64,000 bases of DNA from Candidatus Ozemobacteraceae bacterium. GTDB lineage: Bacteria > Muiribacteriota > Ozemobacteria > Ozemobacterales > Ozemobacteraceae. The stretch spans positions 385-64,384 of the forward strand of contig DATCTT010000187.1 of the NCBI GenBank assembly GCA_036567845.1. The letters run 5' to 3'. Position numbers and translations under genes: made by a program. This document shows, piece after piece, positions 26,030 to 60,049 of the stretch (within the stretch, counting starts at the first letter, position 1; each line of letters starts with the position of its first letter). The notes beneath the pieces are model-generated. The model had not been told where the DNA came from. It made no database searches and saw nothing but the letters and a program-made list of their open reading frames with translations.

Positions 26030-27637
26030 ATGGAACCATTTGCCGTCGTCATCCCCGCTGTCAAGAAGAGCGTCGCCTTTGCGGACGATCTCATCAAAAA
26101 ACTTGATGGGATAACGCTCATTCAGCGCGCAATAGACAAGGCAAAGGCGATTGCTCCGGCGAATGCGATCCTTGTCGTTACCGATTCCCAGGAGATTTCC
26201 CTGATCTGTGAAAGGAATGCCGTGTCCTTCACGTATGACAGGGAAATGAGGCTTCAAAGTGAAGATTTGATCCAGGACCTGAAACCAGTCCTTCGCACAA
26301 TGGCCCGTAGGTTCCAGGATCTTATCGTCCTTTCCCCCTATACCCCGACGTTGCGGCCCGAAGTCATTCGTACCGGATACCGGCTGTTTCAGCAGATGGA
26401 GTATGACCTTCTGACAACCGTCAGAGAGGTTCATCACCGGTTGTATCTCGAGGGGAACAAACAGGCAGAGAGTTCCCAGGCGGTCCGAAACGATGGCAAG
26501 TATCTCGTGGAGGTGAACGGATTTCTCATCCTCCGCTCGAAAGTTGTTGGATCAATCCCCAGTCGGATCGGGACATACCCGGTCGATGACAGCATCGTCG
26601 AGATCCGGAATTATCAGGACTGGTGGGTATGTGAAAAACTCCTCCGCCGGAAGCGGATCGTGTTTCGTGTGATCGGGAACAACGACGTGGGAATGGGGCA
26701 CATTTTCCGCTCCCTGGCACTCGCACACGAAATTTCAAACCATGAGGTCATCTTCGTCTGCGATGAGGAGAGCCAGCTTGCGGTAAATGTCATCGCCGGT
26801 TCGGACTATCTGATCCTCACATTTTCCGGAAAAACGATCGAGCGCGACATCATTGCGTTGAGGCCGGAATTGGTGGTTAATGACATTCTGGATACCAATG
26901 CGGAGTATATCCGGGCGCTTCAGGCGAATGGAATCAAAGTGGTGAATTTCGAAGATCTTGGTACTGGGGCGGCCTGTGCGGACATTACCTTCAACGAATT
27001 ATACGACCGTCACCAAATTGCAGGAAGGAATATCCGGTGGGGACATCGGTATTATTTTTTGAGAGACGAATTTCTCGGTGCCCGGCCGATCGAATTCCGC
27101 GATCCTCCACAGAATGTCCTTATCACCTGTGGTGGAACCGATCCGAATGATCTGACGCGATTTGCCTTGGAGCAGGTGCTTCCCATATGCCGGGAGCATC
27201 ATTTGAAAATTTTTGTGGTGGTTGGCGAAGGGTATCGTCACAGAAAAGAATTGGAAAAACTGATTTTCTCGACGAAGCATGTCGAGATCGAATATTCGTA
27301 TGCCACGGGGGTCATGTCAAAATACATGGAGCGTGCTGATCTGGCGGTTTCCTCGAATGGCAGGACTGTATATGAGCTTGGTCATATGAACATTCCAGCT
27401 ATTGTCATTGCTCAAAATGACCGCGAAAAAACGCATGCATTTTCAACGTTGAAGAATGGGTTCGTCAATCTCGGCTTGTTCGATCCGGGGAAAACCGGCA
27501 AACAATTGAAAAATCATTTCCGCCGTCTCGTCAGCGATGCCGGATGGCGCAGGAAGTTGATGGAAAACGCGAAGAGATTTAATTTTCTCAAAAACAAGCG
27601 GAAGGTCGTTGCCTTGATCGAGGGACTTCTTGCATGA
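26030..27637 (+). CDS. Two-domain protein: degenerate cytidylyltransferase-like N-domain + PseG/SpsG-like UDP-sugar hydrolase (GT28-C-like) domain
   Basis: C-domain RVIGNNDVGMGHIFRSLALAHE parallels the PseG N-terminal G..G.GH..R motif. N-domain resembles CTP_transf_3 but lacks a clean GxSxR motif. Confidence 0.6.
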   Translation: MEPFAVVIPAVKKSVAFADDLIKKLDGITLIQRAIDKAKAIAPANAILVVTDSQEISLICERNAVSFTYDREMRLQSEDLIQDLKPVLRTMARRFQDLIVLSPYTPTLRPEVIRTGYRLFQQMEYDLLTTVREVHHRLYLEGNKQAESSQAVRNDGKYLVEVNGFLILRSKVVGSIPSRIGTYPVDDSIVEIRNYQDWWVCEKLLRRKRIVFRVIGNNDVGMGHIFRSLALAHEISNHEVIFVCDEESQLAVNVIAGSDYLILTFSGKTIERDIIALRPELVVNDILDTNAEYIRALQANGIKVVNFEDLGTGAACADITFNELYDRHQIAGRNIRWGHRYYFLRDEFLGARPIEFRDPPQNVLITCGGTDPNDLTRFALEQVLPICREHHLKIFVVVGEGYRHRKELEKLIFSTKHVEIEYSYATGVMSKYMERADLAVSSNGRTVYELGHMNIPAIVIAQNDREKTHAFSTLKNGFVNLGLFDPGKTGKQLKNHFRRLVSDAGWRRKLMENAKRFNFLKNKRKVVALIEGLLA

Positions 27638-28329
27638 GGAAAATTGTGGGAATCATTCAGGCGAGGATGGGTGCGACCCGCCTCCCCAACAAAATGATGC
27701 TCTGGCTTCACGGGCACCCCATCATCGAATGGGTTGTGCGACGAGCCGGGGCCGCGCAAAAGCTTGATGGGCTTCTCGTGGCTGTCCCGGAGGGAGACGG
27801 CGACGATGTTCTTGCATCATATCTTGTGCGGCAGGGAGTGTCGATCTTCCGTGGGAGTGAGAAGGACGTGGTTGACCGGTTCTATCAGGCTGCGCGCAGC
27901 GTTGGCGCGACTCATGTGGTCCGGATCTGTGCAGACAATCCGTTGATCTGCGGTACGGAAATCGACCATCTGATCGATTACTATTTTGCGAAGAACTATG
28001 ACTATGTCTATAACCATATTCCGAAGAACAACTCCTATCCGGATGGATATGGCGCGGAGATCATCTCCTTCGAAATTCTCGAAAGAATCTGGAAGGAATC
28101 GGTAAAGCCGGAACATCGGGAACACCTCTTGAACTATATATGGGATAATCCAAACGCCTTTTCCATTGCCACATTCGATCCACCGGATGTGAAGCTGGCC
28201 CGGCCCGACGTTCGGCTTGATATCGACCGCATGGCTGACTACGCCATGATGCTTGCCAAACCCCTGCGGATTGACATGGGGGCTAGGGAAATACTGGAAG
28301 TATGGAATGAAGGGGGGGGACACTGTTGA
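27634..28329 (+). CDS. Acylneuraminate/pseudaminate cytidylyltransferase family (PseF/SpsF-like, CTP_transf_3)
   Basis: IIQARMGATRLPNKMM matches the IPARxGSxRLPGK motif. ATGA overlap with the upstream gene. Confidence 0.75.
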   Translation: MRKIVGIIQARMGATRLPNKMMLWLHGHPIIEWVVRRAGAAQKLDGLLVAVPEGDGDDVLASYLVRQGVSIFRGSEKDVVDRFYQAARSVGATHVVRICADNPLICGTEIDHLIDYYFAKNYDYVYNHIPKNNSYPDGYGAEIISFEILERIWKESVKPEHREHLLNYIWDNPNAFSIATFDPPDVKLARPDVRLDIDRMADYAMMLAKPLRIDMGAREILEVWNEGGGHC

Positions 28330-29384
28330 AGAAAAAACTGGCAGATCTGATTGCCTGTGGCCCAAAGAACGAGATTCAACGGCCGTATATCATCGCCGAA
28401 GCCGGTGTGAATCACGAAGGGAGCATGGAGATTGCCTTTCGCCTCATCGCTGAAGCCGCCGATGGAGGGGCTGATGCCATAAAATTTCAGACCTACAAGG
28501 CCGAAACTCTTGCTTCGAGATTCTCACCCTCCTACTGGGATACCTCGAAAGAACCCACACGCAGCCAGTATGAGCTGTTCAAAAAGCATGACCGGTTTTG
28601 GAAGCATGAATGTGAACAACTGAAAGCCGAATGCGATCGCAGGGGAATCGAATTTTTCAGCACGCCGTTCGATATTGAGTCTGCCACATTTCTCAATGAG
28701 ATGATGTCGGTGTTCAAGATTTCCTCCTCAGATATTACGAACCGGCCATTCATCGAGTTCATGTGTGGTTTCAAAAAACCCGTACTTCTTTCTACGGGGG
28801 CATCGTTCCTGCATGAAGTCGAAGAAGCCGTCTCGTGGATCCGACCGTTCGGCGTCCCCTTGGGATTGATGCACTGCGTCCTGAATTATCCGACGGCAGA
28901 TGAGAATGCACATCTTGGAATGATCGGCCAATTGCGTGCGAAGTTCTCCGATTGTGTCATTGGGTATTCGGACCATACGCTGCCTGGCGATATGCACAAT
29001 CTCGAGATTGCCACCCTGCTTGGGGCAGAAATTCTTGAAAAACATTTCACCCACGATAAAACCCTTCCGGGGAATGACCATTATCATGCGATGGACCATG
29101 AAGATCTTCGGCTGTTTCGCCAGTCGTTCGATCGCACCCTGACGGTCATCGGATCCCGTGAGAAAAAGCCGCTGCCCTCCGAACAGCCTGCCAGGGAGAA
29201 CGCTCGCCGCAGCCTGGTTGCTGCCCGCGACATCCCGGAAGGGAAAACAATTGAATATGCCGACCTCACGTGGAAACGCCCGGCCCATGGGATCAGTCCG
29301 AAGGAGATCGCGGGAGTCGTCGGGAAGGTTGCTGCTTGTGCAATAGCCTACGATACGGTTCTCCAATGGTCGATGTTGGGCTGA
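28326..29384 (+). CDS. N-acetylneuraminate synthase family (NeuB/PseI/LegI-like) with C-terminal SAF domain, copy 1
   Basis: YIIAEAGVNHEGSMEIAFRLIAEAADGGADAIKFQTYKAETL is the NeuB TIM-barrel opening. C-terminal SAF (DIPEGKTIEYADLTWKRP). Confidence 0.85.
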   Translation: MKKKLADLIACGPKNEIQRPYIIAEAGVNHEGSMEIAFRLIAEAADGGADAIKFQTYKAETLASRFSPSYWDTSKEPTRSQYELFKKHDRFWKHECEQLKAECDRRGIEFFSTPFDIESATFLNEMMSVFKISSSDITNRPFIEFMCGFKKPVLLSTGASFLHEVEEAVSWIRPFGVPLGLMHCVLNYPTADENAHLGMIGQLRAKFSDCVIGYSDHTLPGDMHNLEIATLLGAEILEKHFTHDKTLPGNDHYHAMDHEDLRLFRQSFDRTLTVIGSREKKPLPSEQPARENARRSLVAARDIPEGKTIEYADLTWKRPAHGISPKEIAGVVGKVAACAIAYDTVLQWSMLG

Positions 29385-29395
29385 GAGCCCCGGCA

Positions 29396-30556
29396 ATGAA
29401 GAAGCTCTCCGAAGAGATCGCGCATTATCTTCAACGGCTGTTTCCCCTGAACCGGAGTCTGACCGGTGAGGGGAATCGTGAAACCCTGCGGATCATCAGC
29501 GAAATCGCTCCCGTCCGCCTTTTTGAGTATCCCTCCGGAAGTCGGATTTATGATTGGATGATCCCGGATGAATGGCATGTTCGTGAAGCCTGGATCAAAG
29601 ACTCCAGCGGCCGAATTCTCGTCGATTTCCTCAGGAACAACCTCCATCTGATGGGGTACAGTGTCCCGGTGCGGCGGACCATGTCGTTTGCAGAATTGCG
29701 GCCGCATCTGCATGTGCACCCGTTCCTGAAAGACGCCATTCCCTACCATACCAGCTACTTCAAGAAACAATGGGGTTTTTGCCTTTCAACCGAACAGCTG
29801 GAAAGCCTGTTCTCCCCTGAGGGGATCTATGAGGTCTGCGTCGACTCTGAGCTGAAGCCGGGAAGCCTTACTGTCGGTGAAATCCTGCTTCCCGGGACCT
29901 CGCAAAAGGAATATCTTGTCTCGACCTACATCTGCCATCCCTCGCTGGCGAATGACAATTTGAGCGGAATCCTCCTGACCGCTCTTCTGGCGCGAGAATG
30001 GGCCACCCGCAAGCGAAACTTTGGATACCGGTTCATCTTTGTCCCGGAAACGCTTGGCGCCCTCGCCTACTGCGCCAACAACGAAGCGGCTGTGAAAGAT
30101 CTCATGGGTGCTTTGGTTGTGACAGGAGTGGGCGGCCCAGGTTCTTTCAGCTACAAGCAGAGCTTTCAGAAAGAACACTTTTTGAATGGCATGGTTGAAG
30201 ATACGCTCAATGAATTGCACCGGGCATTTCTGACCTATCCCTTCGATATTCATGGCTCCGATGAGCGGCAGTATTCCTCGCCCGGATTTCGGATCAATAC
30301 CGTCACGATTTCGCGGGATCGGTACTACGAGTATCCGGAATACCACTCCTCCCTCGATAACCTGGAATTCGTCCGGCCCGAGTATCTCCTTTCCTGTTAC
30401 GAGGCCTATCTCCGGCTCCTCGAAAAAATGGATCAGAACCTCGTATTCATCCGAACCGAGCCTCACGGGGAACCGCGTCTCGGAGCGCGGGGATTGTATC
30501 CCGAGACGGGGGGGGGCAGCGGCCCGAACGGCATGGAAAGAGTGAGCTGGACCTGA
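29396..30556 (+). pseudogene. DUF4910 (aminopeptidase-like) protein truncated by a frameshift in a G9 tract; C-terminal winged-helix segment continues in +1 frame to 30690
   Basis: G9 run at 30507-30515. A G10 would read ...ETGGGQRPERHGKSELDLILWIAFLADGSMNLYEMARKLDVPLEEVYRIALKMEGAGVLRRI* (stop 30690), giving 431 aa, the expected full DUF4910 length. The present frame stops at 30556. Confidence 0.6.
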
Positions 30557-30883
30557 TCCTTTGGATTGCCTTCCTGGCGGACGGTTCCATGAATCTCTAC
30601 GAAATGGCTCGGAAGCTGGATGTGCCTCTCGAGGAGGTATACCGCATTGCCCTGAAGATGGAAGGAGCTGGCGTGTTGCGGCGGATTTAGCGTGGATACT
30701 GTGTGAGGCTGGTTGGAACCGGGGGAAAGCTTGACTAAACCCGGGGGTTCTTGTAGCTTGCTTCTTGGAAACGAGGCGGCAACGCCGGCCGGGAAAGCCC
30801 TGGCGCCGGATGGGCGGGAATACGTCGGAAAACATGCCGCCGGTGAGAAAACTGCGGAACACCCGGAATCCGAGGGAGATATC

Positions 30884-31303
30884 GTGCGCGATTATGCGTT
30901 TTCCGATCTGAAAACCGGGCATCAGGAATCTTTCTCCGTCACTCTTTCGGATGAGATGATGGAACAGTTTAAAAATATAACTGGTGATATTAATCCGTTG
31001 CATCTCGATGCGGAGTATGCCCGGAAGGCCGGTTTCCCAGATCGTGTTGTTTATGGGCTTTTGACCGCATCGTTCTATTCGACCCTCGTGGGGGTGTATC
31101 TGCCTGGAAAGTATGCCCTCTTCCTGGGTGCAAAAAAAATGAATTTCCATCGTCCGGTATTCGTTGGTGACCGGCTGACCGTCACCGGAACGATTGCAAA
31201 TCTGAACGAGGCATTCAAGGTCATCGAAATCAAGGCAACGATCGTGAATCAGCGTTCGGAGCTTGTCTCTGACGCAAGTTTGAATGCCAGTTCCCTGAAA
31301 TGA
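30884..31303 (+). CDS. MaoC-like (R)-specific enoyl/3-hydroxyacyl dehydratase, hot-dog fold
   Basis: FKNITGDINPLHLDAEYARKAGF matches the hot-dog SGD.NP.H.D motif. GTG start at 30884 with GAGGGAG RBS. Confidence 0.7.
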   Translation: MRDYAFSDLKTGHQESFSVTLSDEMMEQFKNITGDINPLHLDAEYARKAGFPDRVVYGLLTASFYSTLVGVYLPGKYALFLGAKKMNFHRPVFVGDRLTVTGTIANLNEAFKVIEIKATIVNQRSELVSDASLNASSLK

Positions 31304-32115
31304 GCCGTTCTGAAACCATGGAGCACATTGCACGAATTCTCGCTGAAAAAACCAGAGACCGATTTGCCACGATTCACATCGATGCTGCCGGTTTGATTCG
31401 GCTGGGCGAGACAAATGACGAGCGCCTGAACAATTTCGAGCGGATCCTGACCACGGCGGAGAGTCTGGGAGGAAACTTTGCTGTTCCCGTTTTTTCATAT
31501 TCTTACGGGAAGAATGAAGTCTTCAACATTCTTGAGACGCCCTCCACGGTTGGCCGGGTCACCGAATACCTGAGGAAACGTCGTCCACATCGGCGGACGG
31601 TCGATCCATTCTTTTCGTTCCTGCTTTACGGAAATGTGGGAATGGCACATTGCCTTGTCCGGGATTATGAATGTTTTGGGGACCAGTCGCTTTTTGCCGA
31701 GCTTCATCAGCTTGACGGGTATGTGTGCTGTATTGGGAATGTCTTTTACAACATTCCGACGGAAGTCCATTATTTTGAACGGAAGTTGGGCGTCGATTAC
31801 CGGTTCAACAAGGAGTTTTCGGGAACGCTCGTGGACGTGGATGGACATCCTCATCCGCAGAAAGCTGTGTATTTTTGCCGGAAAGATCCGAATAGCCTTG
31901 AGGCGGATTTCACGCGACTGGAACGGGATCTTCTCGCGAATTGCCTTTTTGAATATTGGCGCGCGGAAGAGGTCGAGTTCGAAATCCAGGCGATCTCGAT
32001 GCAGCGCCTGTTTGCATTCATTCAGACAAAGGTTGCTGGTAATCCCCACTATCTGTGTTCGCCAGTGGACGCTTACCTCGAAAACAAAAAAAGGCGGAAG
32101 CTGGGGATTATCTGA
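31300..32115 (+). CDS. AAC(3)-family (Antibiotic_NAT fold) N-acyltransferase-like protein
   Basis: ATIHIDAAGL...GNFAVPVFSYSY...VDPFFSFLLYG parallel AAC(3) motifs (VHSSL.. / GTLVMPT.T / DP.F). ATGA overlap with the MaoC gene. Confidence 0.5.
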   Translation: MSRSETMEHIARILAEKTRDRFATIHIDAAGLIRLGETNDERLNNFERILTTAESLGGNFAVPVFSYSYGKNEVFNILETPSTVGRVTEYLRKRRPHRRTVDPFFSFLLYGNVGMAHCLVRDYECFGDQSLFAELHQLDGYVCCIGNVFYNIPTEVHYFERKLGVDYRFNKEFSGTLVDVDGHPHPQKAVYFCRKDPNSLEADFTRLERDLLANCLFEYWRAEEVEFEIQAISMQRLFAFIQTKVAGNPHYLCSPVDAYLENKKRRKLGII

Positions 32116-32117
32116 GT

Positions 32118-33941
32118 ATGAATCCGACGCAAGTGGATCAGGTTTTTCAGTATCCGTTCCAGGGGCAGGAGTTGCTTGCAAAGCAGAATCGGTGGCGGCG
32201 TCTCCTTCTGGAACAGAGTGACTCCTTCGAACCGAAACGCATTGCCATTCTCGGAGGGTCCACCACGTTCAACATCAGGAATCTCCTCGAGCTGTTTCTG
32301 TTGCGGAAGGGGTTCAAACCTACCTTTTATGAATCTGGCTACAACAGATACTTCGAGGAAGCCGTTTTTGAAATGGAGGGCCTGAAGGCATTTCAGCCGG
32401 ACGTGGTGTATATCCATACGACATCCCACAACCTCCTGTATCCGCCCTTGCCGGATGATTCGGCCGAGTGTGTCGAAGAGAAGCTGAATCAGGAGCTTGG
32501 AAGATATCGTCGCATCTGGCAGTCGCTCCAGGATCATTTCCCGTGCGCCATCATCCAAAACAATTTCGAGCTTCCCCTGAATCGGGTTCTTGGAAATCTC
32601 GATTCATCAGCGGTCCAGGGGATGTCCAGATTCATTCTGAGGCTGAATCTGGCCATGGGGGATGCGGTGAGAAGCATGCCCCGCCTGTATATAAATGACA
32701 TCCATTATCTGGCGAGCCTGACGGGGTTGGAGCGCTGGCACGACAGTCGCCTCTGGTATTCCTTCAAGTATGCCCTCAGCTTCGATGCCATGCCCATCCT
32801 TGCGAACAATCTTGCCTCCATTGTCAGTGCCTTGTATGGGAAAACTCAGAAGGCCCTTGTGGTCGATCTCGACAACACCATGTGGGGAGGGGTGATTGGC
32901 GACGATGGACCGTCGGGAATCGAGATCGGGAAGGAAAATCCACGGGCTGAGGCGTTTTCCGACCTGCAGCTCTATGTGAAGAACCTTCACCGGCGTGGAA
33001 TCGTGCTCGCCGTGAGCTCCAAGAATGAAGAGATGATTGCACGAGAAGGGTTTGAGCGCCCGGAGAGTGTCTTGAAACTCACTGATTTCCAGTCCTTCAA
33101 GGCAAATTGGGAGCCCAAGCCCGACAATCTTGTCAAAATCGCTCAGGAGCTGAATCTGGGGCTCGACAGCCTGGTATTTCTCGACGACAACCCGGCGGAA
33201 CGAGAAATCGTTCGGGCCAGGCTGCCCATGGTGAAAGTCCCCCCTCTGGGGGATAGCGTGGAGGAATTCATTGGCCACCTTGACAAGGGCGGCTGGTTCG
33301 AGCCGGTCTTTCTCTCGGCGGACGATCTGGAACGGAACCGGTATTATCACGAAAATCGCAGCCGAGAGGAACTGAAGAACTCCACCTCGACGATTGGTGA
33401 CTTTCTCGCATCCTTGCAGATGACGGCCGAAATTTGCGCGTTTTCTCCCCCCAGCCTCCAGCGGATCACCCAACTCATCAACAAGACCAATCAGTTCAAT
33501 CTGACCACCCGTCGATGCAATCTCGCCGAGGTGGAATCAATGATGAATGGGAAGGAATATATCACCCTGTGTGGCAAGCTCTGCGATAAGTTTGGGGATA
33601 ATGGTTTAATCACGGTCCTCGCGGGGAAGATCACCGGGGATACGGTTGAAATCATCCTCTGGCTGATGAGCTGTCGTGTTCTTCAGCGAGGGGTCGAGGA
33701 TGCAATGATGGACAGGCTGGTGGAGGAGGCCAGGGCCAGGGGAATTCGGAACATCGTCGGGGTTTATCTCCCGACGGCAAAAAATGGCATGGTCAAAGAG
33801 CATTATCTCAAAATGGGATTCACCCGGATGGAAGAGACCGGAGACGAAATGGCAAAATGGATATTCAGGATTCCGGAGAGCTACAGTCCGAGGAACCGCT
33901 TTATCAAAATATCTGCAGTTTCATCGCAAAAAAAGGACTGA
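32118..33941 (+). CDS. FkbH-like protein (HAD-IIIC phosphatase domain + C-terminal GNAT-like domain)
   Basis: LVVDLDNTMWGGVIGDDG (HAD motif I DxDxT), LAVSSKNEE, FLDDNPAERE (motif III). C-terminal domain as in FkbH/OzmB glyceryl-ACP-forming enzymes. Confidence 0.75.
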   Translation: MNPTQVDQVFQYPFQGQELLAKQNRWRRLLLEQSDSFEPKRIAILGGSTTFNIRNLLELFLLRKGFKPTFYESGYNRYFEEAVFEMEGLKAFQPDVVYIHTTSHNLLYPPLPDDSAECVEEKLNQELGRYRRIWQSLQDHFPCAIIQNNFELPLNRVLGNLDSSAVQGMSRFILRLNLAMGDAVRSMPRLYINDIHYLASLTGLERWHDSRLWYSFKYALSFDAMPILANNLASIVSALYGKTQKALVVDLDNTMWGGVIGDDGPSGIEIGKENPRAEAFSDLQLYVKNLHRRGIVLAVSSKNEEMIAREGFERPESVLKLTDFQSFKANWEPKPDNLVKIAQELNLGLDSLVFLDDNPAEREIVRARLPMVKVPPLGDSVEEFIGHLDKGGWFEPVFLSADDLERNRYYHENRSREELKNSTSTIGDFLASLQMTAEICAFSPPSLQRITQLINKTNQFNLTTRRCNLAEVESMMNGKEYITLCGKLCDKFGDNGLITVLAGKITGDTVEIILWLMSCRVLQRGVEDAMMDRLVEEARARGIRNIVGVYLPTAKNGMVKEHYLKMGFTRMEETGDEMAKWIFRIPESYSPRNRFIKISAVSSQKKD

Positions 33942-33948
33942 TCATCGC

Positions 33949-34191
33949 ATGGATGACCAAATGATGCTGAATAAAATACAGGATATATTTCGTGATGTGT
34001 TCGACAAGTCCGACTTGGTCATATCCCGTGAAACGAACTCGGATCAGATCGAAGAGTGGGATTCCCTGAATCACATCAATCTCGTCGTTGCCATCGAGAA
34101 GCAGTTCAAGATCAAATTCACCTTGGCCGAGCTGCAGCCGTTGAAAAATGTCGGGGAAATGATGGATGTGATGCAGAAAAAGCTGTCTTGA
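33949..34191 (+). CDS. Acyl carrier protein
   Basis: ~80 aa with EEWDSLNHINLVVAIEKQFKI (DSL phosphopantetheine site). Confidence 0.7.
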   Translation: MDDQMMLNKIQDIFRDVFDKSDLVISRETNSDQIEEWDSLNHINLVVAIEKQFKIKFTLAELQPLKNVGEMMDVMQKKLS

Positions 34192-34224
34192 AGACAGGCA
34201 ATGGGGAACAGCTGGGAGTAATTT

Positions 34225-34986
34225 GTGGACCAGAAATCAGGGGATGCGGATGTCGTAAATTCCGATGCGCTGTTGGTGATAGGTGCTTCTTCGTCCGTTG
34301 GGAAGGAGTTGATTCGCCTCCTTGCACCTCGTGAATCGAAGATTTTTGCGCATTTTCATCATGACAGGGCGGAACTTGAACGGTTACAGGAGGAGTTCGG
34401 CGCCCGGCTCGTTCTCGTTCAGGCTGATCTCGCGGAAGAAGCATCCGTTGACGCTCTCGTGGAACGGGTCTCATCGGAAGCTCTTCCTCGGAAGATTGTG
34501 TTTCTGGCGGCTCCACCACTCTCTCTGACCAGATTCAAGGACCTTTCGTGGGGGGATTTTCAAAACCATATCGATATCCAGGTGAAAGCTGCCGTGAGGA
34601 TCCTGGGGTGTTTCCTCCCTGCAATGACGACTGCGCGATATGGGCGAGTCGTATTTATGCTGTCGAGTTACACCCTGGGAGTTCCACCGGGTGCGCTTGC
34701 TCATTATGTTCTAGGGAAGTATGCCGTTCTGGGACTCATGAAAGCGCTTGCCGCGGAATACGCGGGAAAGAATATCTGTGTAAATGCTGTTTCGCCATCG
34801 ATGATCACGACGGATTACCTTGCCAATATTCCCGAAAAAATCGTCGAGCTGACAGCGCAACAGCATCCGCGCAAGAAAAATGCTTTGCCAGCAGAAATCG
34901 CTCCGGTTATTGCTTTTTTGTTATCCGAAGGGGCGGGCTATCTCACGGGGGCCAATATTCCCGTGACCGGTGGCTCCCAGTTCTGA
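34225..34986 (+). CDS. SDR-family oxidoreductase (3-oxoacyl-ACP reductase-like)
   Basis: LVIGASSSVGKEL (TGxxxGxG-like), YxxxK (YVLGKYA), NAVSPSMITT. Confidence 0.8.
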   Translation: MDQKSGDADVVNSDALLVIGASSSVGKELIRLLAPRESKIFAHFHHDRAELERLQEEFGARLVLVQADLAEEASVDALVERVSSEALPRKIVFLAAPPLSLTRFKDLSWGDFQNHIDIQVKAAVRILGCFLPAMTTARYGRVVFMLSSYTLGVPPGALAHYVLGKYAVLGLMKALAAEYAGKNICVNAVSPSMITTDYLANIPEKIVELTAQQHPRKKNALPAEIAPVIAFLLSEGAGYLTGANIPVTGGSQF

Positions 34987-35143: not shown

Positions 35144-36367
35144 ATGAGAACAAAAACAAACTCCGTTTCAAACCCTTATTATACATATGGAATGTTATAT
35201 AAATCAGAGAATTTCAAAAACTGGGAGGCGACCAAGGGGGAGAAGTTCAAAAATTACCGCCAGGCTTGGACGGAGCGGGTCAGAAATCAGGATTATGGGC
35301 AGTTCCCGCTGAATCTGAACACCGAGATCACGACGCGCTGCAATCTGAAATGCTCGTTTTGCACACATCTGTCTCTGAAGCCGCATCAGATCGGGGATAT
35401 AACGTTCGATCAGTTCAAACGGCTCATTGATGAGGGTGAACGGTTTGGGTTGCCGACCATCAACATCAATGGCTTGGGGGAGCCGCTTCTCTGCAAGGAG
35501 CTTCCTCGTTTCATCCGGTATGCCAAAGAGCACGGCGTGCTTGACGTCATGTTCCATACGAATGGAACGTTGATGACGGAGGAAATTGCTGAGGAACTGA
35601 TCGATGCCGGCCTGGACCGGATCGTTTTTTCGGTCGACTCCCCGGACAAGAAAACCTATGAGACGATGCGCATTCTGGATGTTCCAACGCCTGTCGGGAA
35701 AGAATCGGCACCTCCAAAAGGGTTCCCGTGGGAAAAGCTGGTGGCGAATGTCCTGAAGTTTGTCGAGGTTCGCAATCGTCGTGGGCTCAAGGCGCCCATC
35801 ATCCGGGCGACCATGGTAGCCACCGAGAAGACGGTGCATCAGGTGCCGGATCTGTTGAAACTGTGGAAGCCGCATGTTGACCACATCACCGTCCAGGATC
35901 TGACCTGGAGAACCAAAATTCTTGATCAGGGCTTCTGGACAAACAAGGAAAACTCCGCTTTGTCTGCAAATTTTGATGCGATCAGAGAAGAGGCGGTTAA
36001 GAGAAACATTCATTTTGTTTGTCCTTACCTGTTCCAGTCTGTTTATCAGTTTTATGGTGGAAATCTCATCCCTTGTGGCAATCCAAATGCACGATCGCAT
36101 ATGATAATGGGGAGATGGGACGAACAGAGCATCCATGAGATTTGGACGGGCAAGGCCTATTCAGAGTTGCGGGCGCTTCACACTTCTGGAAAATGGTATG
36201 AGCATCCGATCTGTAAGGACTGTGACGTTGCTCTGCTCGAACTTTTCAAGGATATGATCTCGAAAAAAATTGCCATTGACTGGCACGCTGGCGAAGTCGA
36301 TGACAGTCTTGCCATCATGGGAGAGCAGCTCGAATCCATTTACCTGGACGAAAAAGGGGCAAAGTGA
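35144..36367 (+). CDS. Radical SAM protein with C-terminal SPASM-type Cys-rich domain
   Basis: CNLKCSFC (Cx3Cx2C). C-terminal Cys cluster (CPY...PCGN...CKDCDVA). Confidence 0.75.
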   Translation: MRTKTNSVSNPYYTYGMLYKSENFKNWEATKGEKFKNYRQAWTERVRNQDYGQFPLNLNTEITTRCNLKCSFCTHLSLKPHQIGDITFDQFKRLIDEGERFGLPTININGLGEPLLCKELPRFIRYAKEHGVLDVMFHTNGTLMTEEIAEELIDAGLDRIVFSVDSPDKKTYETMRILDVPTPVGKESAPPKGFPWEKLVANVLKFVEVRNRRGLKAPIIRATMVATEKTVHQVPDLLKLWKPHVDHITVQDLTWRTKILDQGFWTNKENSALSANFDAIREEAVKRNIHFVCPYLFQSVYQFYGGNLIPCGNPNARSHMIMGRWDEQSIHEIWTGKAYSELRALHTSGKWYEHPICKDCDVALLELFKDMISKKIAIDWHAGEVDDSLAIMGEQLESIYLDEKGAK

Positions 36368-36416
36368 GACGAAATCAGGAGCAATATATGCGCAATATAA
36401 TGCGCAAGGGTTCAGC

Positions 36417-37910
36417 ATGCACCAGCCCCTGAGGGTATTGCTCGTCAATGTGCCTTCCCGCGTTGGGAAAGGCGGTTTCATGTTGCCACTCGGGCTCCTG
36501 TATGTCGCTGGGATCCTCCAGCGTTCAGGGGCCGAGGGGAAAATTTTGGATCTTTATCTGGCCGATTCAGAATCGGCGTTCTTTTCGGACTTGGATGGCG
36601 AAATGGAGCGATTTCGCCCCCAGGTCGTCGGTTTGGGGGGAATCGGTTCTTCGTATTCCTGGGCAAAGACTCTTGCTCTTCGGATACGGGAACGGTGGCC
36701 GCAGGTCCGCATCATCGCCGGTGGGGCTTTGTCCTCCGTTGGCGATCTTCTGCTGAAAAAAGCGGGTGTGGACTGCGTGTTTTACGGGGAGACGGAAAAT
36801 TCGCTTCCGAGATATCTTGAGGCGCTTCGGACGAATGGTGAGATCTGGCGTCTCCCGGGAATTGCTTTTCGGACCGAAGACGGACATGTCCGTTGGAACC
36901 CCCCCTCATCGCAACTGGAAAACCTCGATGAAATTCCGATTCCTCCCTATCACCTCGTTGATTTGCGCCGGTATTGTGTGTCGATCAGGGATTGGATTGA
37001 CATTTATCCATCATTGAATCATTCCTATCCTGGCTTGATCGAAAGGCTGAAAGGGCTGTCGGAATATTATATTCCCATCGTCGGTGGACGGGGTTGTACG
37101 CATTCGTGTTTTTTCTGTTACCGCCACATGAAGGGCGTGCGCAAAAACTCTCCAGCATATCTTGTGCGGCACATGAAGTTTTTGAAGGAAACTTATGGGA
37201 TTGGCGGATTTCAGATATGTGACGAGCTTTTTAACACGGATTCTGACTGGGTCTTGGATTTTTGTCGCCAGATCGATGAAGCACGGCTGAACATATTTTA
37301 TCTGATTGGCGGGGCCAGGGTGGATCGAATGGATGCGCACCTGTTGAAACGTCTTCGTGAAACGGGGTGCATTGAAATCAATTATGGCCAGGAAACGGGT
37401 TCCGATCTCTTGTTGCGTGAGATCAAAAAGGGGGTTGATGCGGCGCAGAACCTTGCCGTTTCCCGGATGACCATCGAAGCTGGAATCCATTGTCCTGTGC
37501 AGCTTGTCCTCGGGATGCCCAGTGAATCGCCGGCAACCATACGCGACACCCTTGCGTTTTTGCGGAAACTTAATGGTTCTTCCATTTCCTTTAATTTCCT
37601 CATTCCCTTCCCAAAGACACCTTCATGGGGATATCTGAAAAAAAGGGGAATACAAGTGGATGAGGAAGAATATCTCCAGGAGGTTGCCCGTGTTGGCGGC
37701 GGGCGTCTGCTTCTCAATCTTACCCGGTATCCAGATTGGATGGTCAGATTTTGGGGGCTTCAGATTTTGCATCTGGCTTCTCTTCTCGCATGCAAAGAAC
37801 AGGGAAGACCCTTGGGATATCTCTTCCGATTTCTCTGGTATCGCGTGAAGGAAATCCTGATCAGGACCCTTTCCCTGTCTCGAAGATGGTTGGGCGTTGG
37901 AGACGCTTGA
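36417..37910 (+). CDS. B12-binding-domain radical SAM protein (class B rSAM, putative C-methyltransferase)
   Basis: N-terminal Rossmann-like B12-binding domain (RVLLVNVP...GLLYVAG). GCTHSCFFC radical-SAM cluster motif. Confidence 0.75.
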   Translation: MHQPLRVLLVNVPSRVGKGGFMLPLGLLYVAGILQRSGAEGKILDLYLADSESAFFSDLDGEMERFRPQVVGLGGIGSSYSWAKTLALRIRERWPQVRIIAGGALSSVGDLLLKKAGVDCVFYGETENSLPRYLEALRTNGEIWRLPGIAFRTEDGHVRWNPPSSQLENLDEIPIPPYHLVDLRRYCVSIRDWIDIYPSLNHSYPGLIERLKGLSEYYIPIVGGRGCTHSCFFCYRHMKGVRKNSPAYLVRHMKFLKETYGIGGFQICDELFNTDSDWVLDFCRQIDEARLNIFYLIGGARVDRMDAHLLKRLRETGCIEINYGQETGSDLLLREIKKGVDAAQNLAVSRMTIEAGIHCPVQLVLGMPSESPATIRDTLAFLRKLNGSSISFNFLIPFPKTPSWGYLKKRGIQVDEEEYLQEVARVGGGRLLLNLTRYPDWMVRFWGLQILHLASLLACKEQGRPLGYLFRFLWYRVKEILIRTLSLSRRWLGVGDA

Positions 37911-39540: not shown

Positions 39541-41382
39541 ATGCCGCAACGATGTGCAGGAGGGGGCTCTGAAAGAAATCCCGTGGAATTGGTTCTTACG
39601 GGATATCAGCCATTATGGCCTGCCGACGAGTCCAACGCCGTGTTTCTCGGTCCGTGGTGCTTTGCGGACAATTCTCGCCGGCCGTTTGGCCAACAGACAG
39701 AATTTCGACTTATTCCCCCCCCGTCTGGAAACAAATGTGACCTGGTTCGAGATGTTGAGAAAATTGATCACATAACGGACCGCGTCCTGCCCGTTCTGGC
39801 GGAACGCCTCAATGCGTGGTACGGAACGAGATTCAGTGAGCGATTTTGGAAAATTTCAACGATCGCATGGCTTTCGTTTTGGATCGGACTCCTTTATGAA
39901 CGATTTGCCCGACTGAGCAACGCTGCCGATGTATTGGGAAGTGGAGGGTATGTCGTCACGATTCCCAGGCATGCGCTGACCTCTCCCCCAGAAGATTACA
40001 ACCAGGCTGCAAACACCTCTCATCTTCATGAGTTTAACCTTGATGTCTTCGCGATGATCTGCCGCGTTCACGCCTTTCCGGGAATGGAACTCAGAGAGAG
40101 AGAACTTCCGGCCGATGGCGCCTGGCGGGAAAAAGTCGCAGGGCTGTCGGGAAGCTGCCAGCCGATCTCCCCGGGGATTGTACGCCAGGTGGAAGCGTTT
40201 CTCGACAGGCTTTGGAAGAATGTAATCCGACCCGAGGTGCATTGGGGGAAAGTCTATGGAGTCACTCTCGGGGATCGACTGTTCTTCGACTGGCGATTGT
40301 GGAGAAGGACTGGACGCCGCTGCCCGAGGTTGGAACCAATTGTGCCGCAAACCGGAGAAATGGATGCGTTCCGGCGAGAACCTCTCTCTTTCGGGGGTGA
40401 AACACCCTTTGAGAAAATCGTTGAAAAGCTCCTCCCGAAGATTGTTCCGGCTGCAGTGCTGAGGGAAATTCCCCCCCTGGAGCGGGAGGAACGGGTTCGG
40501 CTTTGGGTGGGGAATGATATTTGGCAACAGAGAGAGGCATTCAAGATCGCCAGGGTTGTCGAGGGGGGAGGGGCTTGGGTTTCTGTGCAGCATGGTGCCG
40601 GCTATGGCCAGGGAATGCCATTTCCGAATGGAAAAGTCGAATACGAGGCGAGTGGAAATTTCATCTCCTGGGGCTGGACGCATGAGCATTTCTATCCCTG
40701 CCGGGTGATTCCCCTGCCCTCCCCGATGTTGAGCAAACTTCCGGAGCGGAAACTTTCAGATTCCAGCATCCTGCTTGTAGGGATTGGGTATCCCGTGTAT
40801 CGATATCGGCCCATATACAGCCTCAAGCCGGAAGAAATTCTTCCGTATCTCAAAGACCGTGAAACCTTCATCCTGAATATCGATACCCATCTGAAGTTGC
40901 ACGTCAGATTCAAGCCCTATTTTCGGGATTATGGAGAGGATTCTGTCGGCGCTTTGCGAGGAGTGCTCGATTCAACCCAGATTCTCGACCCCCGAAGCTC
41001 GGTTGGCAGCTGCCTTGCCACGGCCCGGGTTGTTGTCGTCGATCATCTGGGGACAACTCTTTCGGAGTCAATGGCTGCAAATGTTCCGACGATTGCCTTT
41101 TGGCGACCGGAGCACTTTGCGGTTTGCGATGAGGCCAAATTTGCTTTTGAAGCACTCAGGGCTGTCGGAATTCTTCATGACTCGCCGGAGAGCGCAGCCG
41201 TGAAACTCAATCAGATCTTCAATGATCTGGAACGTTGGTGGGCTGATCCGGCCGTTCAGCGTGCCCGAAACCTTTTTTTGGACCATTCCGGGATGGCTGC
41301 TGCAGACTGGCGTTTTCGCTGGCTTACCAGAATCCGAGAACTACTGAACGAAGAGCCTCTTGCCCCCCAGGGGAACCCGTGA
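39541..41382 (+). CDS. Hypothetical 613-aa protein (candidate glycan/nonulosonic-acid transferase; family unassigned)
   Basis: Real ORF by codon usage and context. No motif I can assign with confidence. Confidence 0.35.
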   Translation: MPQRCAGGGSERNPVELVLTGYQPLWPADESNAVFLGPWCFADNSRRPFGQQTEFRLIPPPSGNKCDLVRDVEKIDHITDRVLPVLAERLNAWYGTRFSERFWKISTIAWLSFWIGLLYERFARLSNAADVLGSGGYVVTIPRHALTSPPEDYNQAANTSHLHEFNLDVFAMICRVHAFPGMELRERELPADGAWREKVAGLSGSCQPISPGIVRQVEAFLDRLWKNVIRPEVHWGKVYGVTLGDRLFFDWRLWRRTGRRCPRLEPIVPQTGEMDAFRREPLSFGGETPFEKIVEKLLPKIVPAAVLREIPPLEREERVRLWVGNDIWQQREAFKIARVVEGGGAWVSVQHGAGYGQGMPFPNGKVEYEASGNFISWGWTHEHFYPCRVIPLPSPMLSKLPERKLSDSSILLVGIGYPVYRYRPIYSLKPEEILPYLKDRETFILNIDTHLKLHVRFKPYFRDYGEDSVGALRGVLDSTQILDPRSSVGSCLATARVVVVDHLGTTLSESMAANVPTIAFWRPEHFAVCDEAKFAFEALRAVGILHDSPESAAVKLNQIFNDLERWWADPAVQRARNLFLDHSGMAAADWRFRWLTRIRELLNEEPLAPQGNP

Positions 41383-41411: not shown

Positions 41412-42728
41412 TCACGTTGACGTCCGGCAGAGCATGGACAATCGTTCCAGATAGAACGTTTTCGATTCCTCAGCGAGAACCGCGGGAAGATTGACGATCG
41501 TATGACAGGCCTGCTCGCTTTGAAGGCAGCTTCCGGGGGAATACCCCAGCTCCTGAAGAGTGCTGCTGTGAGGCATAATGGGCTCTGTGAACAGAAAGGC
41601 ATCCGTGTCGACGAGGGAACCAAGCCTTTTGCGAAGGGGATCCTCTCGAGGGACCAAGGACAGGATGCGCAAGGGGACGATTTCCAGTCGGGGGTTGCTG
41701 TATGCTTCAGGAACAAATCCCTGCCAGGAGCTGGAACGGAGCAAGTGAAGCGTTTTTTCGAGAATGTCCCGGCGGCGCTCCCGCTCCTGTGGCCAGCGGC
41801 GAAGTTCTCGGCAGGCGATATGAGCAAGGAATGGAGGGAGTGCCGCAGGGTAGGGATAGGGGGTCGAGACGGACGGCAGCCCGAAATCACCATCCAAGAA
41901 GATCGGAGGAGGGGCTTTGCAGAGCCGATGGCGAATGATTCCTGACAGACGGCGGAAAAAGAGGATTCGGGGCCATTTGCAGGGACTTCCATGGCGGGTT
42001 TCTTTCAAAAGTTGATCGTATAAACGCCGCTGGTGCGCGCTCGAAAGGGGCGAAAGGCTTGGGAACAGGCTTTTGATGCGACGGATGACTGCCGGGTCTT
42101 TCGAAAATGCGGCTCCCCCGATCAGGGCATTGAGAGGCTTCGAGTGATCGAATGAAAAAATGGCGGCGTCGGCAAACGTGCCAACCGGTTGGCCATCGAT
42201 TTTTGAATCCAGGGTCAGGGAACAATCTTCGATGATTTTGAGGTGATGCCGAGTTGCGAGGGAGCGCAGAGAATCTATATCGCACGGAATTCCAAACGAA
42301 TGCTGTGCGACGATCACCTTTGTGCGAGGGGTGATACATGCTTCAACGCCTTCTGGCCCGGTCCCAAGGGTTCGAAGGTCGATATCGGAGAAAACCGGTT
42401 TTGCTCCGACGCGCAAGATGGCATTTGCCATGACTCCGCACGTGAAGGCGGGGAGGATGACCTCATCGCCGGGACCGACCCCCCAGCTTTTGAGAATGGC
42501 ATAGAAGGCCATTCTGCCGGATGCAAAAACGACCGCTTCTCCTCCCCCGAGCTGATTCGCCAACGCCTGTTCGAACGCGTGAATTTCCGATGGACTGTCT
42601 GTGGCAACCAGATCGTGCATCGTCTTGCGATCCTGATCGGATACTGCACGGTGCCCTGGAAAAAAACCGAAAAGGACGGGACGTGCAAGGAGAGTGAGCG
42701 CCTTCAAAATAGTCGTACGTATGCTCAT
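41412..42728 (-). CDS. DegT/DnrJ/EryC1/StrS-family aminotransferase with C-terminal extension
   Basis: AFTCGVMANAIL...IIEDCS...SFDHSKPL (PLP-Lys). Confidence 0.75.
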   Translation of the reverse strand: MSIRTTILKALTLLARPVLFGFFPGHRAVSDQDRKTMHDLVATDSPSEIHAFEQALANQLGGGEAVVFASGRMAFYAILKSWGVGPGDEVILPAFTCGVMANAILRVGAKPVFSDIDLRTLGTGPEGVEACITPRTKVIVAQHSFGIPCDIDSLRSLATRHHLKIIEDCSLTLDSKIDGQPVGTFADAAIFSFDHSKPLNALIGGAAFSKDPAVIRRIKSLFPSLSPLSSAHQRRLYDQLLKETRHGSPCKWPRILFFRRLSGIIRHRLCKAPPPIFLDGDFGLPSVSTPYPYPAALPPFLAHIACRELRRWPQERERRRDILEKTLHLLRSSSWQGFVPEAYSNPRLEIVPLRILSLVPREDPLRKRLGSLVDTDAFLFTEPIMPHSSTLQELGYSPGSCLQSEQACHTIVNLPAVLAEESKTFYLERLSMLCRTST

Positions 42729-44488
42729 GGGTTCGTTGATCTGAGAAGCTGCTCCCAGATGCTTGTTTTGATTGGTTCGGAAAGAATGTTCATGGCGGGG
42801 GGCACGATCGCGTTCCGACGGTTGAAGTTTGGTTCGGTTCCGTCGAAAAGCTGTTCCTGAAAAATGGGGAGATCGACGAGGGGGTCAAGATCTATTCTTT
42901 CTGGTATGTATTTCATGGTATTTACTCCGCCCATGAGACACTCGAGCGCTGCGGTGGTTCCAATGTGTATGGCAGACCCCACGCGCGGGATCCATTCATG
43001 GATCGTACCAGAAATGAATGTGAAGGAACTGGGAAGCTCCGGCCGATGCGCGAGAATAAGCGTTTCGGGGCAGTCCGGGTGGGCTTTGAGCAGATATTCA
43101 TGGCCAGTTGTAGCCGAGCGGGTGAGATAGGCAAGCAGATCCAGGGAATACTCGAGAGAGCTTGAAAGAAGAACGAGGGTGCGCTGGGCGCGCACCTCCG
43201 GGGCGGCAGGAGAAAATGGGGCAGGAGAGGTGCTGAAGCGCAGCGAGCCCCCATTCTCGACGGGGCAGGTAAAGCCTGCTTGAATCAGTGCCTTTTGAAA
43301 GAAAGCGCCATTTGCGAGGATGACGTCGGGAAGGGGCATCTCCCTTGCTTCCTGCGGCCCAAGCGCATAATTCAGGAAAAATCTGGGACAGGTGATCGTA
43401 TGGCATGCAGCGATTTTTCCAGAGAAGCGGCTCTCGCGTAACCCTTGAATGGCCATTTTTTCCCAAGGCTGGTTTTCAAAGGGATAAAACAGAATGCTGT
43501 TGGTGAACGTCGCTCGTGATGTCAGTTTGACAAGCGCTTTGCGAACCATGGTCCCATAGAAGATGGTTGCCCATTCCAGAAACCATTGAGAAAGAAGCAG
43601 GGAGGAAACGTCCTTGCTTTCAAATCGCGGAATCGGCTTGTGAAATCTGAAGGAAATTGCCGAAACAAAACAGGTCGCCAAGTCGCGAAGAGAGAGAAGG
43701 TGAATCCAGGGGACCCCGCGCTTCGAGGAATACAGATTTTTCAGAAGTTTCCCGTCCGTGAAAGGCAAGGCAAACACAAGATGGTTGTATCCTGAGCTCT
43801 CGATGCAATCAGAGAGATGCCCGAGATAGGGATCGGTCAGGCGGGAAGAAGTGCCTTCGAAGGAGCGGGGCTCGAGCCACGTTGTCACAATAGCGTGAAT
43901 TGTATCTGGAGCCTTGGAGAGAGGACTTCCGAATTCACGTGAGAGCTTGTAATCCAACCACCAGAGATGAAGACTGGAGATTGCCAGAGAGGCAAGTCTC
44001 CGCAATCCGGCAAGTGTACGGAGTAGGCACTCTTTGAGCAGACCGCGGGGGGGAATTCCCACGATTTTCTCTGGAGGAAGTATCCGGAGGGCGGTATTGA
44101 GCACCCAAGGATCTTCGATGAAGACGATGCAGGGAAACGGTGGCTCGTTTGCCCAGGACTCAAGAAGATGGATGAACACCAAATGAAGAAACAGATCCGA
44201 GGTTAAGGGACTTCGATAGCACGTATTGCTTCCCCACCAGTCGGATTTCTGGGTATTTCCCAATTGCTGAAGCCAAGTGAGAAAACGAGGACGGAGCAGC
44301 TCCGCTTGACGTTGCAGTTCTATGGCGAATGTCCGTCGTGCCGCAAATCCGAAACGCTTTTCGAGGCTGCTCCGATGATGAGCTTTTGTTCCGAAATATA
44401 CCCACTTCCAGCCTTGTGGAAGCGATGGAATATTTTGGCTGTGGGCAAAAGGAACGAGAGTGAGGCCGTGTTGTCTGAAAATGTTCAT
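42725..44488 (-). CDS. Hypothetical 587-aa protein (candidate transferase of the glycan pathway)
   Basis: Trp-rich. Co-directional with, and overlapping by 4 nt, the DegT gene. Confidence 0.35.
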   Translation of the reverse strand: MNIFRQHGLTLVPFAHSQNIPSLPQGWKWVYFGTKAHHRSSLEKRFGFAARRTFAIELQRQAELLRPRFLTWLQQLGNTQKSDWWGSNTCYRSPLTSDLFLHLVFIHLLESWANEPPFPCIVFIEDPWVLNTALRILPPEKIVGIPPRGLLKECLLRTLAGLRRLASLAISSLHLWWLDYKLSREFGSPLSKAPDTIHAIVTTWLEPRSFEGTSSRLTDPYLGHLSDCIESSGYNHLVFALPFTDGKLLKNLYSSKRGVPWIHLLSLRDLATCFVSAISFRFHKPIPRFESKDVSSLLLSQWFLEWATIFYGTMVRKALVKLTSRATFTNSILFYPFENQPWEKMAIQGLRESRFSGKIAACHTITCPRFFLNYALGPQEAREMPLPDVILANGAFFQKALIQAGFTCPVENGGSLRFSTSPAPFSPAAPEVRAQRTLVLLSSSLEYSLDLLAYLTRSATTGHEYLLKAHPDCPETLILAHRPELPSSFTFISGTIHEWIPRVGSAIHIGTTAALECLMGGVNTMKYIPERIDLDPLVDLPIFQEQLFDGTEPNFNRRNAIVPPAMNILSEPIKTSIWEQLLRSTNP

Positions 44489-56710: not shown

Positions 56711-57396
56711 GAAAGTGAAACTTGTTCAGACAGTGCTAACTTCCAGAAGCGATGGAGCTGGGCCAAGTCGCTTACTTTGAAGCAAGGAATCTTTTCGAAA
56801 TAGGTGTTGTCCGGATGGAGGCGGGCTGTAAAAGGAATTCCCGCCGCTTGAGCTGCTTCGTAATCACTCAAGGCATCACCAACGAAGAGGGCATTGGTTT
56901 GCGCGATGTGTCCCTGAGTGAGTATCGCTTTGATTGCATCCAATTTTGATGTGGGTGCTCCAAAGACACCAGTGAAGTAGCCTCTGAGCGAACGGCGGGA
57001 TAAAATCTGGTCCAGCTCGTCTTGGGGTGTTCCTGAAACGATGTAAAGAGCGGCAGAAGCATGTGCTTCCTCGAGAAATTCCATCGTTCCGGGCACAAGC
57101 GGAGCTTCGAGGACTTTCGCAAAAACAATTTCCTGAAAACGCTTTCCAAGAAGCTGAAAATCTGCTTCTGAAAGTGACCTTTGAAGAATTTCAGAGTAGA
57201 TGTATCGGAACTTCACCCACCGCGAAAGGCCGCCTTGCTCGAGGTGATAGGCCATGATGCGCTGGCGACACTCTTCGCTCTCGCCGGCAAAAATTTCGGA
57301 GAAGGCATCTGTTTTGATTCTGCTCGATTCAAGAATCACGCCGTCGAAGTCGAACAGAAAAGCCCGGATCATCGTTTTGGGAAATGAAGATTCCAT
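56707..57396 (-). CDS. HAD-superfamily hydrolase (phosphatase)
   Basis: FLFDFDGVI (DxDG motif I) and VGDALSDYEAA (motif IV). Confidence 0.7.
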   Translation of the reverse strand: MESSFPKTMIRAFLFDFDGVILESSRIKTDAFSEIFAGESEECRQRIMAYHLEQGGLSRWVKFRYIYSEILQRSLSEADFQLLGKRFQEIVFAKVLEAPLVPGTMEFLEEAHASAALYIVSGTPQDELDQILSRRSLRGYFTGVFGAPTSKLDAIKAILTQGHIAQTNALFVGDALSDYEAAQAAGIPFTARLHPDNTYFEKIPCFKVSDLAQLHRFWKLALSEQVSLS

Positions 57397-57410
57397 CGAA
57401 TTGAAATAAT

Positions 57411-59245: not shown

Positions 59246-59296
59246 GAGTGTTCCATTCCTGATCTAATTTAGCCAAGTCGCGTTCGCTCGTGGGCT

Positions 59297-60043: not shown

Positions 60044-60049
60044 GGGTGA

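Follow-up and report, generated by a model that had tools for sequence, protein, structure and literature searches.

An apparent one-base contraction of a poly-G tract truncates a Cj1295-family gene of a nonulosonic-acid locus in a single metagenome-assembled Ozemobacteraceae genome

The closest described counterpart of the gene reported here is Cj1295 of Campylobacter jejuni NCTC 11168, which encodes a protein of 435 aa and contains a poly-G tract; the reading frame is maintained at G9 and lost at G8 (Hitchen et al. 2010, PMC3068675). Cj1295 is needed for the presence of 5-(2,3-di-O-methylglyceroyl) pseudaminic acid on flagellin, and the G8/G9 switch alters the flagellin glycan (PMC3068675). 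The authors of that study proposed that Cj1295 removes the 5-N-acetyl group; a swap of the N-acetyl for another acyl group is their hypothesis (PMC3068675). Using the tract sequence given in PMC3068675, we retrieved the loci of C. jejuni and C. coli, whose tracts illustrate length variation in this known system. In the C. jejuni species representative (GP013) the Cj1295 orthologue has G11, is split into two frames and shows a T-to-G change after the tract, and Cj1296/7 is also split. In C. coli LMG 9860 the orthologue has G9, followed by a different base context.

Cj1295 belongs to the DUF4910/DUF2172/HTH_47 'aminopeptidase-like' family (PIRSF015244), of which CA_C2195 of Clostridium acetobutylicum is also a member. 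The zinc ligands of CA_C2195 are His189, Asp195 and His324 (Das et al. 2014, PMC4000134), and in its structure (PDB 3K9T) the winged helix builds the trimer interface via loop 362-368 and helix 389-393 (PMC4000134). A third body of work concerns the behavior of such tracts in the laboratory: at tracts of G8 to G11, PCR slippage together with next-generation sequencing error inflates the apparent variants 20-35-fold (PMC4965091).

A member of this family lies in a third-party metagenome-assembled genome (MAG) of an uncultured Ozemobacteraceae bacterium. We analyzed a 64-kb stretch of that assembly, referred to here as the window. The product is deposited as a 386-aa record, HEY9070143.1 ('MAG TPA: DUF4910 domain-containing protein'), encoded by a contig of 65.3 kb. 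An earlier note on this DNA had placed nine consecutive G at 30507-30515. The nine G are present, offset by one base at 30508-30516 of the + strand, and constitute the longest homopolymer in the window. Read from the ATG at 29396, the G9 frame runs through ACG GGG GGG GGC and 12 out-of-frame codons to a TGA at 30554-30556, and the resulting product consists of 374 native residues up to T-G-G-G and 12 out-of-frame residues, SGPNGMERVSWT. When one G is added, the codons become ACG GGG GGG GGG (Thr-Gly-Gly-Gly), translation past the tract proceeds as T-G-G-G-Q-R-P-E-R-H-G-K-S-E-L-D-L-I-L-W..., and the frame ends at a TAG at 30688-30690 after 431 aa. A tract change of ±1 thereby switches the frame, with 386 aa at G9 and 431 aa at G10. 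Translation reproduced both products that the earlier note had predicted, i.e., a 386-aa DUF4910 ORF stopping at 30556 and, after one slip, a protein of 431 aa reaching 30690 with exactly the tail that had been quoted; the latter is, as had been said, a normal-sized family member. The start at 29396 agrees with the family consensus N-terminus. Other gene callers use an alternative ATG at 29366, which yields 441 aa (G10) or 396 aa (G9). Within 30517-30690 there is no start codon suitable for a stand-alone winged-helix domain, the longest product being ~33 aa from an ATG at 30590.

The 431-aa reading matches the Pfam families DUF4910 (E=1.9e-77), DUF2172 (E=1.2e-32) and HTH_47 (E=1.4e-14), all above cutoffs, in a three-domain architecture composed of an M28-like domain, an inserted DUF2172 and a C-terminal permuted winged helix. 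HTH_47 is matched by residues 353-429, a stretch that includes the tract junction. Thus, the downstream frame, which had been described as protein-like, is real coding sequence. In the precomputed domains of the G9 reading (P0001), HTH_47 is lost. The domain is present in 118 of the 120 best relatives. About one-third of the best relatives are ~670 aa long and have the enzyme fused to a cytidylyltransferase domain (PF12804/PF02348), e.g., in Sulfuritalea hydrogenivorans, and these fusions support action on nucleotide-activated sugars.

The best solved relative is 3K9T (E=1.6e-97, residues 16-422). It has the same three domains, a conserved GGG motif and the same His/Asp/His zinc ligands, whose equivalents here (H191, D197 and H327 in 441-aa numbering) are invariant or nearly so in the family alignment. 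Unlike the window gene, it has no homopolymer issue and is used solely to predict what the truncation removes. In the G9 product the catalytic domain, the insert domain and about 20 N-terminal residues of the winged helix are left; 57 residues are missing, including those that correspond to the 3K9T interface helix 389-393. By analogy with that structure, the truncated protein would probably fail to form the trimer and lose activity.

In the 90%-identity cluster of the 386-aa protein there is one other member, a 441-aa protein (P0121, from the ATG at 29366) that is the exact G10 reading. Three contigs, each from a different sample, encode it: (i) Logan SRR2059973, (ii) Logan SRR6476075 and (iii) JGI 3300022663. 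The tract is G10 in all three and the gene is intact, so that the orthologue comparison proposed in the earlier note returned an uninterrupted ORF in each of these assemblies, which derive from the same population as the window. Because these assemblies carry G10 and an intact protein, the gene is not decayed. The tally of tract lengths is G9 in one of four assemblies and G10 in three of four, with no other length. We looked up the G9 products (386 aa and 396 aa) among the recorded assemblies and found no other contig encoding them; G8 and G11 products are absent from the collection, since the 90% cluster has two members only. An exact-pattern scan with the left flank plus G6 gave no match in a metagenome contig collection that evidently does not include the JGI contig bearing the sequence. 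The population thus normally has G10 and an intact gene, and G9 is confined to one MAG record.

The SRR2059973 contigs, to which further contigs were added through other window proteins, cover 48,560 bases of the window with 0 mismatches, and the sole indel is the G of the tract. No other homopolymer differs between the window and SRR2059973, including the 8-mers at 23225, 28312, 31132, 39715 and 58698. The SRR6476075 and JGI 3300022663 contigs come from a strain that differs slightly, with 3 and 8 SNPs across the locus, and also has G10. This strain is 95-98% identical to the window at 1-5.7 kb, as against 99.85-99.9% inside the nonulosonic-acid locus (28124-34492). The glycan locus is thus more conserved than the housekeeping flank, the reverse of the usual pattern, which may reflect a recent transfer or sweep.

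The features around the tract are listed in Table 1.

Table 1. Positions in the window of the poly-G tract, its reading frames and the neighboring genes
Feature	Position	Strand	Remark
Cytidylyltransferase-like N-terminal domain fused to PseG-like UDP-sugar hydrolase, 535 aa	26030..27637	+	both matches below equivalog cutoffs
CMP-sugar cytidylyltransferase-like gene	27634..28329	+	G8 run 28312-28319 in last codons
NeuB-family nonulosonic acid synthase, immediately upstream of the tract gene	28326..29384	+	Pfam NeuB 6.8e-67 and SAF; TIGR03569 8.1e-92, below equivalog cutoff
Whole Cj1295-family gene (DUF4910-DUF2172-HTH_47), 431 aa at G10	29396..30690	+	-1 frameshift in MAG record
ORF as it stands with G9, 386 aa	29396..30556	+	same sequence as NCBI HEY9070143.1
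G9 homopolymer	30508..30516	+	G10 in three other assemblies
Last 57 codons and TAG, winged-helix (HTH_47) domain	30517..30690	+	-1 frame relative to upstream ORF
MaoC-like dehydratase	30758..31303	+	domain match
Aminoglycoside-3-N-acetyltransferase-like acyltransferase, Cj1296/7 homologue	31300..32115	+	Pfam Antibiotic_NAT 2.5e-15; tblastn
FkbH-domain protein	32118..33941	+	TIGR01686 2.3e-86, above cutoff; Pfam FkbH_N
Acyl carrier protein	33949..34191	+	domain match
Short-chain dehydrogenase/reductase	34225..34986	+	domain match

The neighbors (a NeuB-family synthase, a cytidylyltransferase and a PseG-like gene) bear out the claim that the tract lies in a nonulosonic-acid locus. The sugar-modification cluster includes, in addition to the sialic-acid-synthase-like (NeuB-family) gene, DegT aminotransferases, FkbH, an acyl carrier protein (ACP), an N-acyltransferase, a MaoC dehydratase, a short-chain dehydrogenase/reductase (SDR), two radical-SAM enzymes, a Wzx-type flippase and glycosyltransferases. 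In tblastn comparisons the window protein and the C. jejuni Cj1295 orthologue share 31.7% identity over 398 of 431 residues (E=7e-63), through the C-terminal winged helix, and this result is independent of tract repair. The acyltransferase is 38-41% identical to C. jejuni Cj1296/7 (E=3e-19). We infer that the FkbH-domain protein loads a glyceryl unit onto the ACP. The locus is a clear homologue of the glyceroyl-type N-acyl module of Cj1295-Cj1296/7 (FkbH, ACP and acyltransferase), which provides a functional lead for the glycan island.

Several other features of the region were observed. The G8 run at 28312-28319 encodes part of the end of the cytidylyltransferase (…NEGGGHC and stop), 7 nt upstream of the TTG at which the overlapping NeuB-family gene starts, and has the same length in two other contigs (L001 and L003); a slip there would change the way in which these two coupled genes join. 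The FkbH-ACP-SDR module is followed directly by a pair of radical-SAM genes (35144-37910), one with a SPASM domain and one B12-binding, which suggests more tailoring (e.g., methylation) of the sugar or the acyl chain. The proteins encoded at 39541-41382 (613 aa) and 42725-44488 (587 aa) had no Pfam match in our scan, and the precomputed table assigns PF27859 (LIC12162) to the former. The glycan locus (20000-47000) is a low-GC island, with 50-57% GC between flanks of 59-66% and a steadily positive GC skew. A second low-GC sugar-nucleotide cluster occupies 56707-61785 on the - strand and, according to the gene calls of contig L090, comprises a radical SAM/SPASM protein, a CTP_transf_3 cytidylyltransferase, an SDR, a 2-hydroxyacid dehydrogenase, an epimerase and a HAD hydrolase.

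At the protein level the tract falls in a conserved segment. The pattern of this segment in 120 relatives is LYPxTGG[A/G]Q[R/L]P, in which the first two Gly are invariant (120 of 120), the third position is Ala in 84 and Gly in 27, and 79 sequences have the Thr. No gap is needed to fit the G10 reading, LYPETGGGQRPE, to the pattern; G7 would remove one residue. In the 21 intact coding sequences (CDS) of the locus, GGG is used for 35% of Gly residues and ACG for 41% of Thr residues, each being the commonest codon for its amino acid, and the tract is thus an unremarkable spelling of a conserved motif. Given the peptide, ACG-GGG-GGG-GGG arises by chance in ~1.8% of cases. From Markov models fitted to the window (orders 0-3), 0.5-1.2 G/C runs of at least 9 are expected per 64 kb, and the probability that one or more occurs is 39-70%.

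Ten of the 12 G/C runs of at least 7 in the window lie within the glycan locus, and this clustering was considered as a contingency-locus signal and rejected on the basis of a synonymous-codon shuffle of 22 locus CDS. The shuffle gave no significant excess for runs of at least 7 (9 observed vs 5.6 ± 2.2 expected, P=0.09), at least 9 (1 observed vs 0.92 expected) or at least 10 (1 observed vs 0.25 expected, P=0.23). The G run at the tract site is 2-6 bases long in 51 metagenomic relatives; since none exceeds 6, the long tract is lineage-specific. The motif was located in 51 of 80 relatives in that survey and is Gly-Gly-Gly in 3 of the 51, which makes the survey a weak test of how often the motif gives rise to a long G run. 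The genome, which had been described as high-GC, is moderately so, at 57% overall and 50-57% in the locus. An evolved contingency locus is not supported, and phase variation, for which the earlier note had put the tract forward, is no more than a candidate reading: the conserved motif and the codon preference explain the tract, there is no excess of tracts, and G9 occurs in one record.

There are several possible explanations for the G9 call. With moderate confidence, we favor an intact, functional gene of the Cj1295 family with an incidental slippery tract, of which G9 is an artefact or a minor slip variant. The protein would, judging from its domains and neighbors, be an M28-like 'aminopeptidase-like' enzyme with a C-terminal winged helix that acts in a nonulosonic-acid N-acyl modification module. 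The normal sequence of the population would be G10, spelling the conserved Thr-Gly-Gly-Gly in the commonest codons of the locus, and G9 would be a single-base contraction of the slippery tract in one MAG assembly only. The contraction would stem either from a homopolymer miscount (in sequencing, PCR or the assembler) or from an incidental minority slip variant. In neither case would the gene be permanently truncated, nor would an on/off switch have evolved. It resembles known homopolymer frameshift artefacts in being a one-base contraction, at the longest homopolymer of the region, in one assembly only and with the rest identical. Unlike in a data set that is generally error-prone, no other homopolymer disagrees in 48.5 kb. 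There is also a hint against an artefact: if the MAG and the Logan assembly share the same Illumina reads, their disagreement in length would point to a fairly balanced G9/G10 mixture, because two coverage-guided assemblers should both choose the majority length and error alone is seldom balanced. The in vivo slippage to which G10 tracts are prone in all bacteria, the proven poly-G phase variation of the family in Campylobacter and the lineage-specific length of the tract likewise count against the favored explanation. Where the G9 call came from and what the truncation would do are both our inferences, and homopolymer error and phase variation appear about equally likely. Genuine slipped-strand phase variation, i.e., a reversible change between G10 (ON) and G9 (OFF or altered) as in C. 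jejuni Cj1295, is possible, although we think the case leans against it. The ON state would produce the trimeric enzyme and an N-acyl-modified nonulosonic acid on the surface glycan, the OFF state would leave the sugar unmodified, and the MAG sample would have been rich in OFF cells. Such a switch is consistent with the occurrence of both lengths in assemblies that agree at every other base over 48.5 kb, with a fully intact downstream frame (which implies a recent or reversible shift), with the homology to Cj1295 and the proximity of the Cj1296/7 homologue (both being poly-G genes in C. jejuni), with the retention of G10 in two strain lineages and with the concentration of long G/C runs in the glycan locus. 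Against it stand the restriction of G9 to one of four assemblies with no further length seen, the lack of a tract excess once protein sequence and codon usage are held, the identity of the tract with a conserved motif in preferred codons, the invariance of the 7- and 8-mers of the locus across assemblies and the documented technical slippage at G8-G11 (PMC4965091). We regard as doubtful the stronger claim of a bona fide poly-G phase-variable nonulosonic-acid modification gene in an uncultured Ozemobacteraceae lineage, in which the tract would have been acquired independently of Campylobacter at a different site and would toggle the oligomerization winged helix instead of the whole protein, resulting in surface-glycan heterogeneity in an environmental, non-pathogenic population.

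Two further explanations take the G9 sequence as the true state of the gene. A fixed loss of function in the MAG strain would mean either an incipient pseudogene or a 386-aa enzyme that works without its winged helix. The deposited record and its annotation do give a 386-aa protein, and the H/D/H zinc-ligand residues and the entire DUF4910 and DUF2172 matches lie upstream of the shift. We nevertheless consider a fixed loss very improbable, since the otherwise identical SRR2059973 assembly has G10, the tail shows neither a second lesion nor decay, HTH_47 is kept almost throughout the best relatives and the winged helix forms the trimer interface in 3K9T. Alternatively, the G9 gene could be recoded: if either the ribosome shifted by -1 or transcription slipped on the G run, the full-length protein would result. 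A -1 shift on the run does lead into the frame of the full-length protein, and poly-G lets tRNA-Gly re-pair at any position. Recoding is highly improbable, given that the other assemblies encode the protein in a single frame with G10, that the relatives are single-frame too and that the 84 nt downstream fold no better than shuffled sequence (z=+0.70; 153 of 200 shuffles fold at least as well). No Rfam element was found in 29000-31500. The sequence G GGG GGG is not known as a canonical slippery heptamer. A programmed -1 frameshift site was accordingly rejected as a candidate, there being no stimulatory fold, no Rfam match and a single frame in both the relatives and the sister assemblies.

The favored explanation, an intact gene with an incidental slippery tract, and phase variation differ in what they mean for the record and for the biology of the locus. 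If the G9 call is technical, the deposited 386-aa HEY9070143.1 is mis-truncated and is to be read as a 431-aa enzyme. If, on the other hand, a G9/G10 mixture is biological, homopolymer switching of nonulosonic-acid decoration would reach an uncultured environmental lineage in the same enzyme family, which would suggest that this glycan-tailoring step is a recurrent target of stochastic switching, e.g., under phage pressure.

The comparison with Campylobacter poly-G genes made in the earlier note turned out to be closer than had been claimed, in that the gene is a homologue of the phase-variable Cj1295 itself, although the site of the tract is not shared. The two proteins belong to the same family and are of similar size (435 vs 431 aa), both genes are part of a nonulosonic-acid locus and adjoin a homologous N-acyltransferase gene (Cj1296/7), and both contain an intragenic poly-G run that encodes Gly-Gly-Gly and shifts the frame upon a length change of ±1. 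The Campylobacter tract is located in the 5' part of the gene ('LNKTLGGG', ~residue 45), where a slip abolishes nearly the whole protein, whereas the tract in the window gene is located at residues 371-374 of 431, where a slip removes the winged helix only. A Campylobacter tract at the homologous site was therefore rejected: Campylobacter reads 'LYHTLSTAND' there, with no G run. Further, the Campylobacter tracts are strongly anomalous in a genome of ~30% GC, whereas the window tract is within compositional expectation, and both the switching and its effect on the glycan are experimental results for Cj1295, whereas for the window gene they would be predictions. Set beside the Campylobacter system, the window tract would be, at most, a case of homopolymer frame switching of an already known kind in a Cj1295-family gene and, at least, a one-base error in a deposited MAG.
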